Shown piece by piece: positions 6,639 through 26,777 of a stretch of 61,653 nt of DNA. This stretch comes from an uncultured Gammaproteobacteria bacterium. Lineage in GTDB: Bacteria; Patescibacteriota; Patescibacteriia; UBA10025; JAHIVO01. The stretch is from the NCBI GenBank assembly GCA_964415025.1, contig CAYPXF010000007.1, positions 1-61,653 of the forward strand, given 5' to 3'. The notes under the pieces are model-generated. The model did not search any database, was not told where the DNA came from, and was given only the letters and a program-made list of their open reading frames with translations. The position numbers and the translations under genes are program-made. Positions within the stretch are counted from its first letter, which is position 1, and the number at the start of each line of letters is the position of its first letter.

Positions 6639-7958
6639 TTAGGAGGATGCACAGATCGTCTCTACTGCATCAGGCTGGCCGTGTACTTTCCAAAAGTCAC
6701 GGAAATGCACTGGACAGCCCAGCAGTTCGCTGCCGCCCTCACGTGGCAGCGCATAAAACGGGTTAATGCGTGCATACAGCCCTTTAGTCTGTATGGCACC
6801 ATCGTGAGTGTAGTAGGTGACATCATACTGTTTACGGACAATCCGCTGGACAACCCAGGGATTAGCCAAACAAGTATCTGATACGGCATCATTGATCAGC
6901 TGTGCCGCGCGCGACTTAGAACACATACCGAGATGCAGCACGCCTTTGCCCCCGGCCCGCAGTCTGGGATCTAGTCCAGCATACTTGAGCGCGAACAACC
7001 GCTGCTTCGTATTGAGAACGGCAATATCAGAAAGGCGAAGATGCGCTACGTCCCCTCGTTCTTGCTCTACGGCAAGCGTACTGTACGGGTCAGCCACATA
7101 GGTTACTGGAAACAACCGCCGTACCGCATCAGAATACAGCATGAACGTACGGGGATGATACGGCAGCATGGTGGCTACCTTATGATCTGTCAGTACGCTT
7201 GGCGGCGGCTCGATTTCGAGTACGCCCTGCTGATACAACTCCAGTAACTTTTGCCAGCCATCATACTGGATTAATTCCTCGAGATAATGCCGGAACACGA
7301 CATCATACGATGCAATATTTTCCGGGATTTCCTGGATACAGATATCGAAGTCAATACCCTGACCCCGGATAGCTTTGGCAAAGTATGCGGCCTCTGCTCC
7401 GTAAAACCGGTATTTGTGCAACAAATGCACTACTCGGGGGCGCTGTTTTCCGGTAAGTGCACGAAGATGGTATGCGACACGCTCTACAAACCGCCGTCCG
7501 ATAACCTGATAACCCCGGTAACAGTCTGCCAGAGCAGCGTGGTATCCCCAGCCAGAACCTGGCGTTTGCGCTTCGACTGCCACGTTGAAGCTCGGCTGGT
7601 CCATACGCATGAACAGTGGAACACGCGGTATCCGGTGCTCGAATAGTTGCCGGTGGATTGTCTTCAATGTTTCAGGCATGCCGGTTTCAAACAAATCGAC
7701 CAGCCATGACCATGCATCATTATTGACCGCATACTGATACAAGCGATTTGTGGTCTGCGCCCATTCTCTGATAGCAGCGCCGCGCCGAATCAGTAATTGG
7801 TGCTGCTGCGCGGAAATAAAGAACGGTTCAGGACTGACCATTGAGGTGAATGTTTTTTCGTCACCAAATCCTACCTGGGCTTGGTCGAGTTGTTGTTTGA
7901 CAGCCAGCGCCTTTGCTTCCAATGTTTGCTGTTCGGTGTTTAGTGTTACAGTCTTCAC
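6639..7958 (-). CDS. Putative ATP-grasp amide ligase (glutathionylspermidine synthase / circularly permuted ATP-grasp-like)
   Basis: R-x-D (FMRMD) followed by E-x-Q-T-P-G-S-G; EPP...DHK, LKYAG...GGKGV and WVVQR motifs; GTG start with strong SD GAAAGGAGGT. Confidence 0.6.
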   Translation of the reverse strand: MKTVTLNTEQQTLEAKALAVKQQLDQAQVGFGDEKTFTSMVSPEPFFISAQQHQLLIRRGAAIREWAQTTNRLYQYAVNNDAWSWLVDLFETGMPETLKTIHRQLFEHRIPRVPLFMRMDQPSFNVAVEAQTPGSGWGYHAALADCYRGYQVIGRRFVERVAYHLRALTGKQRPRVVHLLHKYRFYGAEAAYFAKAIRGQGIDFDICIQEIPENIASYDVVFRHYLEELIQYDGWQKLLELYQQGVLEIEPPPSVLTDHKVATMLPYHPRTFMLYSDAVRRLFPVTYVADPYSTLAVEQERGDVAHLRLSDIAVLNTKQRLFALKYAGLDPRLRAGGKGVLHLGMCSKSRAAQLINDAVSDTCLANPWVVQRIVRKQYDVTYYTHDGAIQTKGLYARINPFYALPREGGSELLGCPVHFRDFWKVHGQPDAVETICASS

Positions 7959-19048: not shown

Positions 19049-20449
19049 TTATTTTTTATCTTGCAGAGAAATATGGAGCTCGTTGAGCTGCGCTGTACTG
19101 ACCGCTGATGGTGACCCGGTCATTGGTTCGCGGTTGTCTCCAGTTTTTGGAAAAGCGACAACTTCACGAACATTAGCTTCATTAAACAAAACCATAAACA
19201 GCCGATCAATACCCGGGGCAATACCCCCATGCGGGGGAACGCCGTAGGAAAATGCCTCCAGCATGTAACCGAACTGCTGTTGTGCTTCCTGGTCTGGAAT
19301 TCCGATCAGCCGGAATATGTTTCGCTGGATATCAGGATCAGTAATACGGATACTGCCGCCGCCAACTTCAAATCCGTTGAGCACCATGTCGTGTTGCCAT
19401 GACCGGACCGCATGCGGATTAGTGTTAAGTTTGGCAATATCTTCATCTTTTGGTGAGGTAAACATGTGATGCGCCGGCGCCAAGTGGCCATTTTCCTTTT
19501 CCGGCTCAAACAACGGCCAGTCAACAACAAAACAAAAAGCTAACTCGTCTGGATTGTCCTTGTCCTGACGCAAGTCAGGTCGGTCAGTGCCATACGTGTC
19601 CATTGCCTCCTGGTACGTGAGTCGCGGCCAGGGACTGGCGCTGATTTTTTTTTCAGGAAATATTTTTTTCACCAGGCTGGTAAACAAATTTTCTGTCAGT
19701 ACTAATATGTCTGCCTGATTCGCAAAAGAGAGTTCAATATCCAGCTGATAAAATTGGTCGGGCGCGCGGTCAGCCCGGGCGTCCTCGTCACGAAAACACG
19801 GTGCTATCTGGAAATACCGTTCAAAACCAGCCACCATCAGCATTTGCTTATACTGCTGCGGAGACTGGGGTAGGGCATAAAATTTTCCCTGGTGCTGGCG
19901 CGACGGAACCAGATAATCACGCGCCCCCTCTGGGGTTGATTTAGCCAGAATAGGTGTTTCTATCTCATAAAAATCATGGCCGTGCAAATAGTCGCGCATG
20001 AATTTGATGGCCTGGGAACGTTTGATAATTTTTTGCTGGTTTTTCTGCCGGCGCAAGTCTAAATAGCGATATGTATAGCGCAACTCTTCACTGGGTTCTT
20101 CTTTCGCTGTCTCCCCTATTTCAAATGGTGTAGTCTTGGCCGTAGACAGAATAGTAAGCCCCTGTGCCTGCAGCTCGATTGTGCCGGTGGGCAAATCTTT
20201 ATTTACTAATTTTTCCGGACGTTTATTTACTAGTCCAGTAACAGCTACTACGTATTCGCCGCGGAGCGACTTGGCCTGTTCGAGTAATTCCTTATCCGCT
20301 GCTAAAAAAACTACTTGGACCACGCCCGTAATATCACGTATGTCCGCGAAGACCATTTTACCCATACGCCGGGCAGTATGGACCCAGCCGCGGATAGTGA
20401 CTGTTTGCGAAACATGCTGGGGAGTGTCAGTAATGCGAGTATGCTTCAT
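19049..20449 (-). CDS. aspS: Aspartyl-tRNA synthetase (bacterial type, GAD domain absent)
   Basis: STPEGARDYLVPSR, QSPQQYKQMLM, FRDED, PPHGGIAPGIDR. Confidence 0.95.
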   Translation of the reverse strand: MKHTRITDTPQHVSQTVTIRGWVHTARRMGKMVFADIRDITGVVQVVFLAADKELLEQAKSLRGEYVVAVTGLVNKRPEKLVNKDLPTGTIELQAQGLTILSTAKTTPFEIGETAKEEPSEELRYTYRYLDLRRQKNQQKIIKRSQAIKFMRDYLHGHDFYEIETPILAKSTPEGARDYLVPSRQHQGKFYALPQSPQQYKQMLMVAGFERYFQIAPCFRDEDARADRAPDQFYQLDIELSFANQADILVLTENLFTSLVKKIFPEKKISASPWPRLTYQEAMDTYGTDRPDLRQDKDNPDELAFCFVVDWPLFEPEKENGHLAPAHHMFTSPKDEDIAKLNTNPHAVRSWQHDMVLNGFEVGGGSIRITDPDIQRNIFRLIGIPDQEAQQQFGYMLEAFSYGVPPHGGIAPGIDRLFMVLFNEANVREVVAFPKTGDNREPMTGSPSAVSTAQLNELHISLQDKK

Positions 20450-21431: not shown

Positions 21432-22724
21432 TTATGGACGTAAACGATTAAGGAGCCGGGGGAAAGGGATAGTCTCCCGCACATGATCCAGGCCGCACAG
21501 CCAGGCGACGGTCCGCTCAAGACCAATGCCAAAACCAGCATGTGGCACTGAACCGTATTTACGCAAATCCAAATACCAGCCAAGTTCATTTTCAGACAGC
21601 TGATGTTCTTTTAGCCGCTGCTGCAATACAGTCGCATCCCAGATGCGCTCTGAACCGCCGATGATTTCACCGTATCCTTCTGGTGCCAACATATCGTTGC
21701 ATAGCGCCAGCTTGGGATCCTCCGGATCAGGCTGCATATAAAACGCTTTTATCGCTGACGGGAAGTGGGTGATAAAAATCGGAGTCTGGTACTCTTTTGT
21801 CAGCAGTGTTTCATCATCACCGCCCAAATCCTCGCCTTCTTTGATATCTGAACCCAGCTCATGCAGTTTTTGTATTGCTTCGCTATACCGTAACCGCGGA
21901 AAATTTCCCCGCGCCTTTGCCAGGAGGCTGGTATCACGCTCCAAAATTTCAAATTCATGGCTGCATGTTGTTAACACCTGTTGTACCACATAGCTGACTA
22001 ATTTTTCCTGAAGTTTCAAACTGTCCTCGTGCTGCATAAACGCGGCTTCAGCATCCAGCATCCAAAACTCCATGAGGTGCCGTCTGGTCTTCGACTTCTC
22101 TGCACGAAACGTAGGGCCAAAATCATATACCTTGCCATGCGCCATAGCCAGCGCCTCTAAATACAGCTGTCCTGATTGGGATAAATACGCAGATTCATCA
22201 AAGTATTCCGTTTCAAACAAGGTAGTCGTACCTTCGCACGATGTCGGGGTCAAAATCGGCGTGTCAGTCAAGACAAATCCCTCTTTCCGGAAAAATTCCC
22301 GCAGGCGCCAGATAATTTCATCCCTGATGCGCACCACAGCCTGCTGTCGCTCTGACCGCAGCCATAAATGCCGGTGATCCAACAAAAAATCCACACCGTG
22401 CTCTTTTTTCCCGAGGGGGTATTCCTCGGCCTGGTGAATCAGCTCAATACCGCTCACCTGCATTTCATAGCCATACGGAGAGCGTTCATCAGCCTGGACC
22501 GTGCCATTCACGCGTACGCTTGATTCAATTGTCAGTTGCTCACAGACAGCCCATGCTGCGTCACTGACTTCATTCTTGGACACGACGGCTTGTATCCGGC
22601 CTGAACCGTCCCGGATTTGCAGAAAATAAATTTTACCAGAGCTACGAAAATTAAAAACCCACCCTTGTAGCAGGACGGGTTTACCAAGATATTTGCTTAT
22701 TTTTTTCAGATGCACTTGCTCCAT
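21432..22724 (-). CDS. asnS: Asparaginyl-tRNA synthetase
   Basis: [47 protein letters not shown]; start placed after the promoter. Confidence 0.95.
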
Positions 22725-22734
22725 AGGTAAAAAT

Positions 22735-22763
22735 ATTATACCTATTTTTGAGTATTTTTGCAA
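22735..22763 (-). promoter_or_regulatory. Sigma70-type promoter of the asnS operon
   Basis: TTGCAA-17 bp-TATAAT. Confidence 0.7.
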
Positions 22764-25619: not shown

Positions 25620-25973
25620 TCATTCAGTCCACGTATTTGTCTGACCAACCACAAAGATGACAATCGCCCAGGCTAGGAGGACAACGATCAAGCCAACAAC
25701 TGCAGCGGTGATAGTTTTCTTAGCTTTCGCAATTTTATCCTCATTACCACCTGATGTGAGCCAGAGAAAACCACCGTACAGAATGAAAATAACAGCAATC
25801 AATCCCAAGAAACCAAGTACCCACTGAATAATATTCACCACTGTAGATTCTAAATCAGCAGTGCCCAGTCCAAAGGTAGAACCATAATTACCAGTGCCTA
25901 CTTGCGCTAGAGCCACTGCTGGCAGTGTTAATCCAACAAGCGTCAAGGCGCTGCTTTGTAATATTTTTTTCAT
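25620..25973 (-). CDS. CPR-type pilin (VirB2/TrbC-like)
   Basis: Signal peptide then IIQWVLGFLGLIAVIFILYGGFLWLTSGGNEDKIAKAKKTI; SD GAAAGGGGGT. Confidence 0.85.
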   Translation of the reverse strand: MKKILQSSALTLVGLTLPAVALAQVGTGNYGSTFGLGTADLESTVVNIIQWVLGFLGLIAVIFILYGGFLWLTSGGNEDKIAKAKKTITAAVVGLIVVLLAWAIVIFVVGQTNTWTE

Positions 25974-26197: not shown

Positions 26198-26270
26198 AAA
26201 AACCTTCTCATCTTTTGGGAAGGTTTTTAATGGTGGGTCGTACAGGTCTCGAACCTGTGACACCCTGCTT
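26198..26270. repeat. 73-bp direct repeat, copy 1 (terminator + tRNA-Lys 3' half)
   Basis: Identical to 26590-26662; similarity resumes at 26295-26312 and 26338-26350 after two insertions. Confidence 0.95.
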
Positions 26271-26350
26271 TACCCCGCCTGAATAGGCGGGGTAAAAAGG
26301 CAGGTGCTCTACTTCACCCCGCCCTTCGTGGGCGGGGCAAGCTGAGCTAA
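26231..26350 (-). pseudogene. Pseudo-tRNA-Lys: nt 7-76 with hairpin insertions in the anticodon loop and D loop
   Basis: Lacks acceptor-stem nt 1-6; inserts at 26271-26294 and 26313-26337. Confidence 0.85.
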
Positions 26351-26575
26351 TTTACTTTTGTATTTACGATTTTTCTTTTTAAGCCACATTTCATGTTTTC
26401 TGGCCTCTCTATAACTTTGATGTCCCTTAACATACACAAGGGTATATGGTCTTTGCCGAGCAGTAAACCAATATTTACCCGAGTTATGCTCTCGTAACCT
26501 TTTGATCGGATTAACAGATATGCCTACATAGTAGGATCTATTTTTCACACAGCAAATTAAATATGTATAAATCAT
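26309..26575 (-). CDS. Stand-alone GIY-YIG nuclease (YazA/UPF0213/Slx1-like)
   Basis: YTYLI..SYYVGIS (GIY-YIG equivalent), KRLREHNSG (Arg, His), EARKHE (Glu). Confidence 0.9.
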   Translation of the reverse strand: MIYTYLICCVKNRSYYVGISVNPIKRLREHNSGKYWFTARQRPYTLVYVKGHQSYREARKHEMWLKKKNRKYKSKLAQLAPPTKGGVK

Positions 26576-26589
26576 AGCGCTAAAACAAT

Positions 26590-26620
26590 AAAAACCTTCT
26601 CATCTTTTGGGAAGGTTTTT
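26590..26620 (-). terminator. Intrinsic terminator after tRNA-Lys (duplicated at 26198-26228)
   Basis: AAAAACCTTC...GAAGGTTTTT. Confidence 0.75.
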
Positions 26621-26662
26621 AATGGTGGGTCGTACAGGTCTCGAACCTGTGACACCCTGCTT
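26590..26662. repeat. 73-bp direct repeat, copy 2
   Basis: Identical to 26198-26270. Confidence 0.95.
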
Positions 26663-26698
26663 AAAAGGCAGGTGCTCTACCAACTGAGCTAACGACCC
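26623..26698 (-). tRNA. tRNA-Lys (anticodon TTT), CCA encoded
   Basis: GGGTCGTTAGCTCAGTTGGTAGAGCACCTGCCTTTTAAGCAGGGTGTCACAGGTTCGAGACCTGTACGACCCACCA, 76 nt. Confidence 0.97.
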
Positions 26699-26726: not shown

Positions 26727-26777
26727 ATAGTAACAAATAAATACTAATTTGACAAGGCCATACAATATGAGTATATG
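26727..26777. promoter_or_regulatory. Divergent overlapping promoters for tRNA-Lys and dnaB
   Basis: Minus: TTGTCA-17-TACTAT (26755 to 26727); plus: TTGACA (26749)-17-TATATG. Confidence 0.55.

Follow-up and report, generated by a model that had tools for sequence, protein, structure and literature searches.

Contig CAYPXF010000007.1 (61,653 nucleotides; this whole stretch is called the window below) carries an open reading frame (ORF) for an 88-aa GIY-YIG protein, enclosed by an intact tRNA-Lys gene and a second copy of the same gene (tRNA-Lys′). The second copy lacks its 5′ end and is interrupted by two GC-rich palindromes. The same layout recurred at other tRNA genes in related genomes. Our favoured explanation is a selfish nuclease cassette that lives on tRNA genes and is spread or amplified by break repair, with the tRNA copies acting as homology arms; we give this reading an even chance of being correct. 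We see similarly balanced chances that the feature in the window belongs to a large class of such cassettes, found in Patescibacteria and perhaps outside them.

Architecture of the tRNA-Lys locus

All parts of the locus were read on the minus strand, and coordinates refer to the whole window (Table 1). ARAGORN, Rfam and Pfam agreed with a preliminary description of this DNA on the first half of the arrangement: an intact tRNA-Lys gene with a terminator-like hairpin, a 14-nt spacer between this hairpin and the ATG, and the 88-aa GIY-YIG ORF. The tRNA was the only RNA family matched in an Rfam scan of the region. Identical 73-bp repeats offset by 392 bp had also been reported, and the repeat proved exact (26198–26270 / 26590–26662), consisting of tRNA nt 37–76 and the terminator-like hairpin. 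The second tRNA-Lys copy had been described as running from nt 7 to the CCA. Its start at nt 7 and the shared terminator were correct, but the copy is not continuous; it is composed of three pieces with two palindromes.

Palindrome module 1 (29 nt, CTTG-CCCCGCCCACGAAGGGCGGGG-TGAA) stands in place of nt 16–18 of the D loop. Module 2 (24 nt, TA-CCCCGCCTATTCAGGCGGGG-TA) lies between nt 36 and 37 of the anticodon loop, and its stem is stacked on the anticodon stem. Palindromes of the form CCCCGCC-N(4–10)-GGCGGGG occurred exactly twice in the window, both times in tRNA-Lys′, while none were expected from shuffled sequences. The acceptor stem of tRNA-Lys′ cannot form because nt 1–6 are missing, and neither ARAGORN nor Rfam called this copy as a tRNA. 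The second copy is disabled as a tRNA by the loss of its 5′ end and by the inserted palindromes.

The sole minus-strand promoter candidate suitably placed for the tRNA–ORF unit lies upstream of the tRNA (26755..26727), and our search for promoter-like sites between tRNA-Lys and the ORF found none. The start codon is located 47 nt past the tRNA 3′ end, and no Shine–Dalgarno sequence is visible upstream of it. The hairpin at 26590..26620 is probably leaky, since a strict terminator scan passed over it. The final 13 codons of the ORF (LAQLAPPTKGGVK) and the TAG stop are supplied by the D arm of the second copy and the first palindrome.

The absence of an integrase or transposase nearby was confirmed: we found no integrase, transposase or recombinase (tyrosine and serine types) between the repeats or within ~10 kb. 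tRNA-targeted integrative elements have one intact and one partial tRNA copy as terminal direct repeats (PMC9897764). The locus resembles them in using a tRNA gene as the site and in having the 3′ part of the tRNA directly repeated at its two ends; an identical 73-nt repeat including the tRNA 3′ half, with one copy intact and one partial, is their textbook signature (PMC9897764). A remnant or minimal integrase-mediated island at the tRNA-Lys 3′ end, with attL and attR left behind, is nevertheless contradicted by the anatomy and in our view very improbable. An integrase was found neither in the window region nor in related loci, and the interval measures just 392 bp rather than kilobases. The partial copy reaches nt 7 and bears palindromes, the repeat continues into the terminator, and the ORF is fused to the 5′ part of the tRNA at many different tRNAs. 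The earlier suggestion that the tRNA 3′ end was regenerated in the manner of an integrase had to be abandoned, as the second copies start at nt 1–8, are fused to the ORF and have a palindrome-split D loop. An origin of the second tRNA as a retro-copy was considered separately and rejected: the repeat includes the terminator beyond the CCA, and copies of CCA-less genes also lack the CCA.

A false duplication made by the assembler was also weighed, as the contig is a short-read metagenome product with a 73-nt exact repeat. An independent Logan assembly of the same organism (contig L330, SRR7048225; L numbers are our labels for loci and contigs) ends exactly 30 nt (k−1) inside the terminator repeat (~26198–26228). 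L330 begins within hairpin copy 2, its nt 1–30 corresponding to this part of the window. This break at the repeat confirms that the repeat is present in the reads, not the order of the parts. We regard an artefact as extremely improbable, however, since the architecture was found in >70 independent assemblies, including CP181398, a record submitted as a full chromosome (L009, L231, L269), and two structured inserts that distinguish the copies cannot stem from a collapse or expansion error.

Table 1. Features of the tRNA-Lys locus, listed in the direction of reading.
Feature	Position	Strand	Basis or remark
Promoter-like site TTGTCA-17-TACTAT with TG	26727..26755	minus	Consensus match only; upstream of tRNA-Lys
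Intact tRNA-Lys(UUU), CCA encoded	26623..26698	minus	ARAGORN (ttt); Rfam RF00005, 72.6 bits
Terminator-like hairpin, copy 1 (AAAAACCTTC..GAAGGTTTTT)	26590..26620	minus	Within the 73-nt repeat; DNA fold −9.1 kcal/mol, z −5.0
88-aa GIY-YIG ORF	26309–26575	minus	ORF list; Pfam PF01541
GIY-YIG catalytic core, codons 1–76	26348..26575	minus	Pfam PF01541, E 2e-14; AlphaFold2 predicted local distance difference test (pLDDT) 87
ORF tail AQLAPPTKGGVK and TAG stop	26309..26347	minus	Encoded by tRNA-Lys′ D arm and palindrome 1; disordered in the model
tRNA-Lys′ piece a, nt 7–15 (TTAGCTCAG)	26342..26350	minus	Identical to intact gene
Palindrome module 1 (CTTG-CCCCGCCCA CGA AGGGCGGGG-TGAA)	26313..26341	minus	Core 26317–26337; 9-bp stem, −12 kcal/mol
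tRNA-Lys′ piece b, nt 19–36	26295..26312	minus	18-nt repeat, identical to intact gene
Palindrome module 2 (TA-CCCCGCC TATTCA GGCGGGG-TA)	26271..26294	minus	Core 26273–26292; 12-bp stem, −14.4 kcal/mol
tRNA-Lys′ piece c, nt 37–76 including CCA	26231..26270	minus	Identical to intact gene
Terminator-like hairpin, copy 2	26198..26228	minus	End of the 73-nt repeat; unique sequence from 26197

Recurrence at tRNA genes

The preliminary description had proposed to search genomes of the candidate phyla radiation (CPR) for small GIY-YIG ORFs beside tRNA repeats. The linkage to tRNA genes turned out to be a property of the family. Our sample comprised 30 homologous loci from GTDB species representatives. 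An intact tRNA on the same strand ends at most 141 nt upstream of the ORF in 22 of the 30, and 4 further loci have an intact tRNA just downstream. The gap between tRNA 3′ end and start codon was −1 to 14 nt in 18 of the 22 loci with an upstream tRNA; together with the promoter search in the window, these gaps bear out the earlier claim that the nuclease gene has no promoter of its own. The tRNAs in the 30 loci were Thr (cgt, ggt, tgt), Val (gac), Lys (ttt, ctt), Phe, Ile (gat, tat) and Met, i.e., at least 10 species.

In most of these loci, the ORF continues into another copy of that tRNA, which begins at nt 1–8 and has its D loop split by CTTG-CCCCGCC..GGCGGGG-TGAA. The second copies often contain extra modules in the anticodon loop, variable region or T arm, and they are often truncated too. 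Their pieces are 100% identical to the intact gene in about one third of the loci and diverged elsewhere. A module is present on both sides of the tRNA + ORF pair in L003, L007, L008, L014 and L025. Three loci (L018, L019, L023) have no tRNA nearby; their ORF is enclosed by CCCCGCCAA and TTGGCGGGG. Two complete tandem units of 390 bp each were found in L017 (866–1720), and a tandem tRNA + ORF repeat with two units of 533 bp in L418 (179–1025), whereas the ORFs of L032 and L031 are truncated. Tandem units and truncated ORFs are consistent with a cycle of gain and decay. As a separate observation, two different GIY-YIG ORFs stand in succession in L329 (~7114–7899).

A hidden Markov model search of all retrieved loci revealed further distant GIY-YIG ORFs amid intact tRNAs and palindrome-riddled fragments at tRNA-Glu, Met, Leu and Tyr. 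The search of 1.84 billion representative proteins yielded 15,091 matches at E ≤ 1e-3, 1,622 clusters at E ≤ 1e-10 and 10 at E ≤ 1e-30. Six proteins taken from the 150 best matches served as the distant sample, and each of the six was encoded beside or overlapping a tRNA and palindrome-interrupted fragments. The tRNAs were His, initiator-type Met (CGCGGGG 5′ end), Ala, Asp and Arg, plus a 3′ fragment on one short contig. L420 reproduces the exact layout of the window (tRNA, terminator, ORF, tRNA′, terminator), and L419 carries a second, non-tandem GIY-YIG ORF. Taken together, family and distant members are found at >15 tRNA species, and the logic of their junctions is shared. The common rule is that the start codon follows the tRNA 3′ end and the stop comes from the next tRNA copy; the cassette is essentially the ORF only.

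A variant of the downstream junction was observed in some distant members, L417 (1201–1514), L421 (1201–1513) and L158 (3701–3958), where the last 6–13 codons of the ORF lie inside an intact tRNA. With the stop codon inside the intact tRNA, RNase P cleavage would remove the stop, and tRNA maturation and nuclease translation would therefore be mutually exclusive for each transcript.

The GIY-YIG protein

The match of the 88-aa protein to Pfam PF01541 covered residues 1–71 with 54.1 bits (cut-off 22.6). Its homologues are 78–97-aa proteins from CPR metagenomes, and an alignment of 29 sequences showed Y5, Y16, G18, R26, H30, N31 and E62 to be invariant; the catalytic residues expected of the superfamily (the Tyr of GIY, the Tyr of YIG, Arg and Glu) are thereby conserved. 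The AlphaFold2 model has the order strand, strand, helix, helix, strand, helix, helix, and residues 80–88 are disordered, with low pLDDT. The top Foldseek matches were GIY-YIG domains throughout. Both in sequence and in fold, the best matches were the UPF0213/YhbQ-type structures 1YWL and 1ZG2, followed by the nuclease domain of Slx1. The sequence matches to the UPF0213 and Slx1 structures had E values of 1e-10 and 1e-5 to 1e-6, respectively, the profile matched Slx1 chains with E values of 9e-6 to 1e-4, and the Slx1 fold match gave a root mean square deviation of 1.6–3.1 Å over ~70 residues with 27–34% identity. I-TevI and UvrC were far weaker matches (I-TevI fold E ~0.7).

The protein shares its single-domain size with UPF0213/YhbQ, a family that differs in having no established function and for which we found no report of tRNA linkage in the literature. 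Slx1 has a C-terminal zinc finger and works with Slx4, and neither is present here; the RING/PHD-type finger is absent from the 88-aa protein. Judging from sequence and model, the protein is a relative of the Slx1 domain and not a member of the Slx1 family, because it is a single domain without a zinc finger and residues 80–88 are disordered. The preliminary description had pointed to the role of GIY-YIG domains as homing endonucleases; a ~76-aa core of the Slx1/YhbQ type is not a classical enzyme of this kind. We found no DNA-binding domain in the protein beyond this core, and the intron-endonuclease model TIGR01453 scored 13 bits against a cut-off of 56 (E 0.06).

The dN/dS ratio of the core was 0.1–0.4. 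Together with the invariant catalytic residues and the confidently predicted fold, this ratio indicates a functional gene under purifying selection on the protein, which would presumably act as a nuclease. The C-terminus is a separate matter. The conserved LAQLAPP..GGVK of the homologues is the D arm and palindrome in protein reading, and the tail is missing in L018–L027. Third codon positions vary freely in the core and were more conserved in the tail (0.73 vs 0.57), as expected for a tail conserved as DNA or RNA.

We found no other record of the exact 88-aa protein. A defence-system or phage origin was rejected; the window protein had no PADLOC defence-system or PHROG phage-family match, and relatives in viral contigs are distant, with 34–40% identity only.

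Palindrome modules

The palindromes are closely linked to the ORF. At distances of up to 450 nt from the ORF, they reached a density of 1.05 per kb, ~43-fold above the 0.024 per kb in the rest of these loci. The flanks are mostly CTTG..TGAA. Paired stem cells amounted to 91.6%, compared with 43–56% when the partners were slid, and 13 double changes occurred at one pair. Stem pair 8 was U-A in 22 modules and C-G in 12, a covariation above that of all but 4 of 500 shuffles. The alignment indicates that the stem is kept by compensatory change. Pair 9–21 included six G-U and zero A-C, a hint that folding takes place in the sense strand, be it RNA or single-stranded DNA.

A first generic palindrome scan was swamped by chance matches in high-GC genomes (103), and a D-arm-plus-arm pattern was used instead. 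The exact string AGCTCAGCTTGCCCCGCC was found in 101 stretches of GTDB representatives. We took 33 sites in high-GC genomes as chance and kept 74 non-redundant low-GC sites, at which other genomes carry the same module at the same D-loop site as the window. The ORF reads into the module at 16 of the 74 and lies at most 140 nt downstream at 8; 24 consist of a 5′ tRNA fragment and the module, with an intact tRNA within 110 nt after it; at least 11 have an intact tRNA between palindrome arms inside the D loop of another copy; and there are 15 others. The D-loop palindrome has a wider distribution than the ORF.

In the nested group, the arms are longer by 3–12 bp and continuous with the acceptor stem, and the inner tRNA is identical to the outer one in L320 and L322. 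An empty perfect palindrome in L259, CCCCGCCAAATTTGGCGGGG, matches the arms in L238. Modules occupy the apex of the D, anticodon (36/37) and T arms, always in tRNA-sense orientation and without flanking homology. The module loops were seen in both flip orientations.

Several individual sites are worth recording. A complete tRNA gene nested between CCCCGCC/GGCGGGG arms in the D loop of another copy of the same tRNA was seen in L320, L322, L272, L297, L303, L235, L238, L271, L306, L318, L319 and L325; leader and trailer pair as an acceptor-stem extension in the nested loci, and the CCA is not encoded. On the minus strand of L339 (~1300–1400 and 800–900), adjacent twin palindromes with mutually reverse-complementary loops (TCCGCCAGAGGCGGA then TCCGCCTCTGGCGGA) are present at tRNA-Lys 36/37. 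Flip and flop loops flank the tRNA + ORF pair in L003/L158. CP181398, a Kerfeldbacteria record labelled as a chromosome, has at least 3 sites in one genome: at one, the ORF accompanies tRNA-Lys(ctt), and two others are tRNA-like genes that lack the ORF and have a pair of D-loop palindromes apiece.

The modules allow another reading, the strongest competitor of the favoured one, in which CTTG-CCCCGCC..GGCGGGG-TGAA is itself the mobile unit, comparable to repetitive extragenic palindromes (REPs) or miniature inverted-repeat transposable elements, and the GIY-YIG protein is a structure-specific hydrolytic nuclease in the role of the REP-associated tyrosine transposase (RAYT) or the TnpA of IS200/IS605. 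Cassettes with self-complementary ends (a mini-palindrome, a tRNA or the ORF) would enter hairpin tips of single-stranded tRNA-gene DNA, and the intact tRNA would be cargo or rescue. Compared with homing, this reading accounts better for the nested tRNAs (with inner and outer copies identical in two loci), the ORFs enclosed by arms, the presence of modules in loops and the fixed orientation. The empty palindrome of L259, the lack of flanking homology and the two flip orientations of the loops are also in its favour. Slx1, a near structural relative, cuts branched and hairpin DNA, and most D-loop modules have no ORF in cis, as would be the case for non-autonomous copies. Even so, we consider it rather unlikely. 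It requires a joining activity; to our knowledge, GIY-YIG enzymes hydrolyse DNA, and strand transfer is not known for any of them. The ORF of the window is not between palindrome arms, and a target-site duplication and defined ends could not be derived. The rarity of the module outside tRNA contexts in the sampled loci fits targeting, but it also fits survival only in dead tRNA copies. The homing and palindrome-bounded models are not mutually exclusive.

A broader version of this reading can be put forward tentatively, as a possibility that falls short of an even chance: a new class of elements, in which palindrome-bounded cassettes insert at the tips of tRNA-gene hairpin arms (folded single-stranded or cruciform DNA) and are moved by a minimal Slx1-like GIY-YIG nuclease without a recombinase. 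Just as tentatively, the cassettes may carry the nuclease gene, a fresh copy of the destroyed tRNA, or nothing. If this were true, an insertion would be viable, and not easily lost, thanks to the rescue tRNA, selfish tRNA genes would replace the resident allele, and the nuclease would be an ORF-only passenger of the tRNA transcript.

The interrupted copy might also be thought of as a functional tRNA with intron-like inserts, the GIY-YIG protein aiding their removal from RNA. The inserts are in loops, one position being near the canonical 37/38 intron site, and the tolerance of G-U on the sense strand only (pair 9–21) hints that the transcript folds. We find this hardly credible, since the acceptor stem of the window copy is impossible without nt 1–6, many copies have deletions or truncations, an intact partner tRNA is almost always adjacent, and the D-loop module removes the conserved GG. 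A bulge-helix-bulge was not visible by inspection (no motif scan was run); the 4-nt unpaired flanks do not have the 3-4-3 geometry. GIY-YIG enzymes are DNases, which counts against this reading as well.

Distribution and divergence

The locus at which tRNA-Lys(ttt) is divergent from dnaB could be compared among relatives, all of which have at most 72% DnaB identity; presence and absence were scored at the family level. DnaB groups the source organism with Patescibacteria, its best match among species representatives being no closer than 69%. No DnaB relatives closer than about 68–72% were found in GTDB representatives or JGI metagenomes. Most of the relatives have no such ORF at all, and the order is usually tRNA-Lys followed by tRNA-Thr. 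L334 has tRNA-Lys, a GIY-YIG ORF with 35% identity and tRNA-Lys′ with TCCGCCGGCTGGCGGA. L032 has the same palindrome type as L334 and a truncated ORF. L339 contains tRNA′, an ORF with 44% identity, tRNA-Lys and tRNA′, with twin flip/flop palindromes at 36/37 and in the T loop; the palindrome in its tRNA-Lys′ differs from that of the window but occupies the same position, 36/37. Of the empty sites that the preliminary description expected in relatives, the family-level absence at the dnaB/tRNA-Lys locus was found, while an empty allele in a close relative was not.

The metagenome-assembled genome (MAG) labels of L002, L015, L026, L027, L014 and several dnaB loci look wrong, since these MAGs are named "Gammaproteobacteria" or "Alphaproteobacteria" yet have CPR-type genes. 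The DnaB of the mislabelled-looking MAGs is closest to that of the Patescibacteria window.

The question of which tRNA copy belongs to the element was addressed in other loci, because the two copies in the window are identical and the window is uninformative on this point. In the Thr(cgt) set, the mean identity was 0.84 for the interrupted and 0.78 for the intact copies, and the interrupted copies of L004 and L016 are nearly identical. These values weakly suggest that the interrupted copy travels with the ORF and the intact copy is that of the host. Blocks shared by L272/L297/L303 and by L275/L294 stop at the tRNA and module borders, which may simply reflect tRNA conservation. We rejected the possibility that an altered D arm makes the intact partner tRNA a resistant allele, as the ratio of canonical to variant D arms was 56/22 near modules and 57/32 elsewhere (p = 0.32).

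Proposed mechanism

In the favoured explanation, the selfish cassette would consist of a ~76-aa nuclease core that has no promoter, evident ribosome-binding site or stop of its own and sits between two copies of one tRNA. The upstream intact copy would supply transcription. The start codon of most relatives directly adjoins the tRNA 3′ end, and tRNA 3′ processing would leave a leaderless-type mRNA; in the window, read-through of the weak terminator would be needed instead. The last codons and the stop would be provided by the downstream dead copy. The nuclease may break or nick tRNA-gene DNA, or palindromes and cruciforms within it, and repair from a cassette-bearing template would then recreate tRNA–ORF–tRNA′, with both tRNA copies as homology arms. 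The strong conservation of tRNA sequences would let these arms serve between different strains and species. Unequal repair would give rise to tandem tRNA + nuclease units, as shown experimentally for T6 SegB, and the intact copy would keep the host viable. The palindromes could be linked mobile or recognition modules that put the spare copy out of action, break up the repeat and probably lend stability to the mRNA at its 3′ end. Homing, a 392-bp circle and a cleavage target, which the preliminary description had already envisaged, stay conjectural in this scheme.

Several results weigh against this explanation. Neither a cleavage site nor a circle or copy-number variant was observed, nor was an empty allele in a close relative, the nearest relatives being those with 68–72% DnaB identity. 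Nucleotide divergence was at least 20% for every ORF pair in the sample, and synteny across lineages was seen at several sites, e.g., tRNA-Val–ORF–tsaD in L003, L008 and L011. Given this divergence and synteny, long vertical persistence shows as clearly as mobility. The known homing endonucleases need a DNA-binding module to recognise a long site, and a 76-aa domain that has none does not resemble them. Homing by gene conversion does not explain the constant palindromes in anticodon and T loops, which have no flanking homology, nor the tRNAs and ORFs nested between palindrome arms. The intact partner usually has a canonical D arm, and if the D arm were the target, self-cutting would be left unexplained. 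The identical repeats had been taken to imply recent activity or gene conversion; recent activity is unproven, in view of the ≥20% divergence of the sampled ORFs and the seemingly vertical descent of several sites. A search for near-identical ORFs in different tRNA contexts found none, all pairs being at most 80% identical, and the sequences leave current mobility unproven.

A further reading is a resident, domesticated nuclease, a housekeeping or repair protein of the UPF0213 type that is merely co-transcribed with tRNAs, the fragments and palindromes being old debris and nothing being mobile now. Purifying selection, invariant catalytic residues, the tRNA–ORF synteny conserved in several lineages, the failure to find near-identical copies in different contexts and the lack of defence-system and phage-family matches all agree with it. 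We judge it improbable all the same. The ORF is absent from the orthologous locus in most relatives, and other subfamilies are found there in some. The use of one junction logic at so many tRNA species, the tandem units and truncated copies, and the strong enrichment of palindromes beside the ORF also speak against it, and a housekeeping gene would not need a stop codon borrowed from a broken tRNA.

Comparison with known systems

The closest tested analogue of the proposed selfish cassette is SegB of phages T4/T6, a free-standing GIY-YIG homing endonuclease of the T-even tRNA cluster. According to two reports, SegB cuts tRNA genes and promotes co-conversion (PMC2330249; PMC13096335). T6 SegB drives the recombination-dependent tandem amplification of a 718-bp tRNA-Tyr + segB unit, with a junction between the segB 3′ end and the tRNA 5′ end (PMC13096335). 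In both systems, a GIY-YIG nuclease gene adjoins tRNA genes, and the junction type in T6 matches the fusion of the ORF to tRNA nt 7 and the 392-bp period in the window. The phage protein has >200 aa and a DNA-binding region, whereas the core found here is cellular (CPR), has 76 aa and belongs to the Slx1/UPF0213 branch. SegB loci have neither palindrome inserts in a disabled tRNA copy nor nested tRNAs, and the T6 amplification is a transient escape, in contrast to the stable, conserved arrangement described here.

REP/RAYT and IS200/IS605 systems share with our loci the multi-copy short GC-rich palindromes, the conserved flanking tetranucleotides and the compensatory stem changes. In both cases, a small nuclease gene is sometimes located between inverted palindromes, although here this applies to L018, L019 and L023 and not to the window or most loci. 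The strand-specific orientation, a further likeness, suggests a single-stranded intermediate. The enzyme, on the other hand, is of the GIY-YIG type and not an HUH/Y1 transposase, no HUH ORF is present in the element, and the modules are concentrated in tRNA-gene copies, unlike the intergenic dispersal in REP/RAYT.

Collaborative homing (cyanophage psbA, T-even mobE/intron) combines a free-standing endonuclease with a target-protecting insert; in the known cases, this is a self-splicing intron, and the gene does not lose its function. The nuclease gene beside a presumptive target and the short insert that splits the presumptive target site are reminiscent of this arrangement. The insert here is a palindrome of 24–29 nt, however, and the interrupted copy is dead while a separate intact copy is functional.

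Full-text literature searches did not find a description of a small GIY-YIG gene between a tRNA and a palindrome-interrupted copy; the relevant reports dealt only with SegB and integrase-type partial tRNAs. SegB, integrase-type partial tRNAs, the REP/RAYT logic and the free-standing selfish nuclease at tRNA genes are already known. If confirmed, the cassette would be a very small autonomous selfish unit (~230–400 bp) without a promoter, ribosome-binding site, stop codon or recombinase of its own, exploiting the most conserved and most transcribed genes of the cell. It would provide a function for part of the large uncharacterised UPF0213/YhbQ-type GIY-YIG family (the 1,622 clusters above), explain the tRNA pseudogenes and odd GC-rich hairpins of CPR genomes, and extend the SegB principle of nuclease-driven tRNA-gene duplication from phages to cellular genomes. 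tRNA annotation is affected, and so is MAG assembly, because the repeats break short-read contigs at tRNA genes. The system is also a testable one for the site preference of a structure-specific nuclease without a DNA-binding domain.

Surroundings and further observations

The neighbouring genes in the window code for DnaB, RecR, a P-type ATPase, aminoacyl-tRNA synthetases, SecY and Adk. Just downstream of the element, the minus strand encodes a 117-aa protein with a signal or transmembrane segment (25620–25973), for which the precomputed annotation is PF18895 T4SS_pilin; an 899-aa P-type cation ATPase comes next. The minus strand also carries a pair of paralogous class II aminoacyl-tRNA synthetase genes (Asp/Lys/Asn type; PF00152 and an OB anticodon-binding domain) at 19049–20449 and 21432–22763. 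They are ~1 kb apart, with two ORFs without a Pfam match between them. Among the other contigs examined, the layout was also seen in two that are possibly not from Patescibacteria, L415 (a 921-nt JGI contig with 57% GC) and L420 (GCA_031398055.1, beside an acetyl-CoA carboxylase gene).

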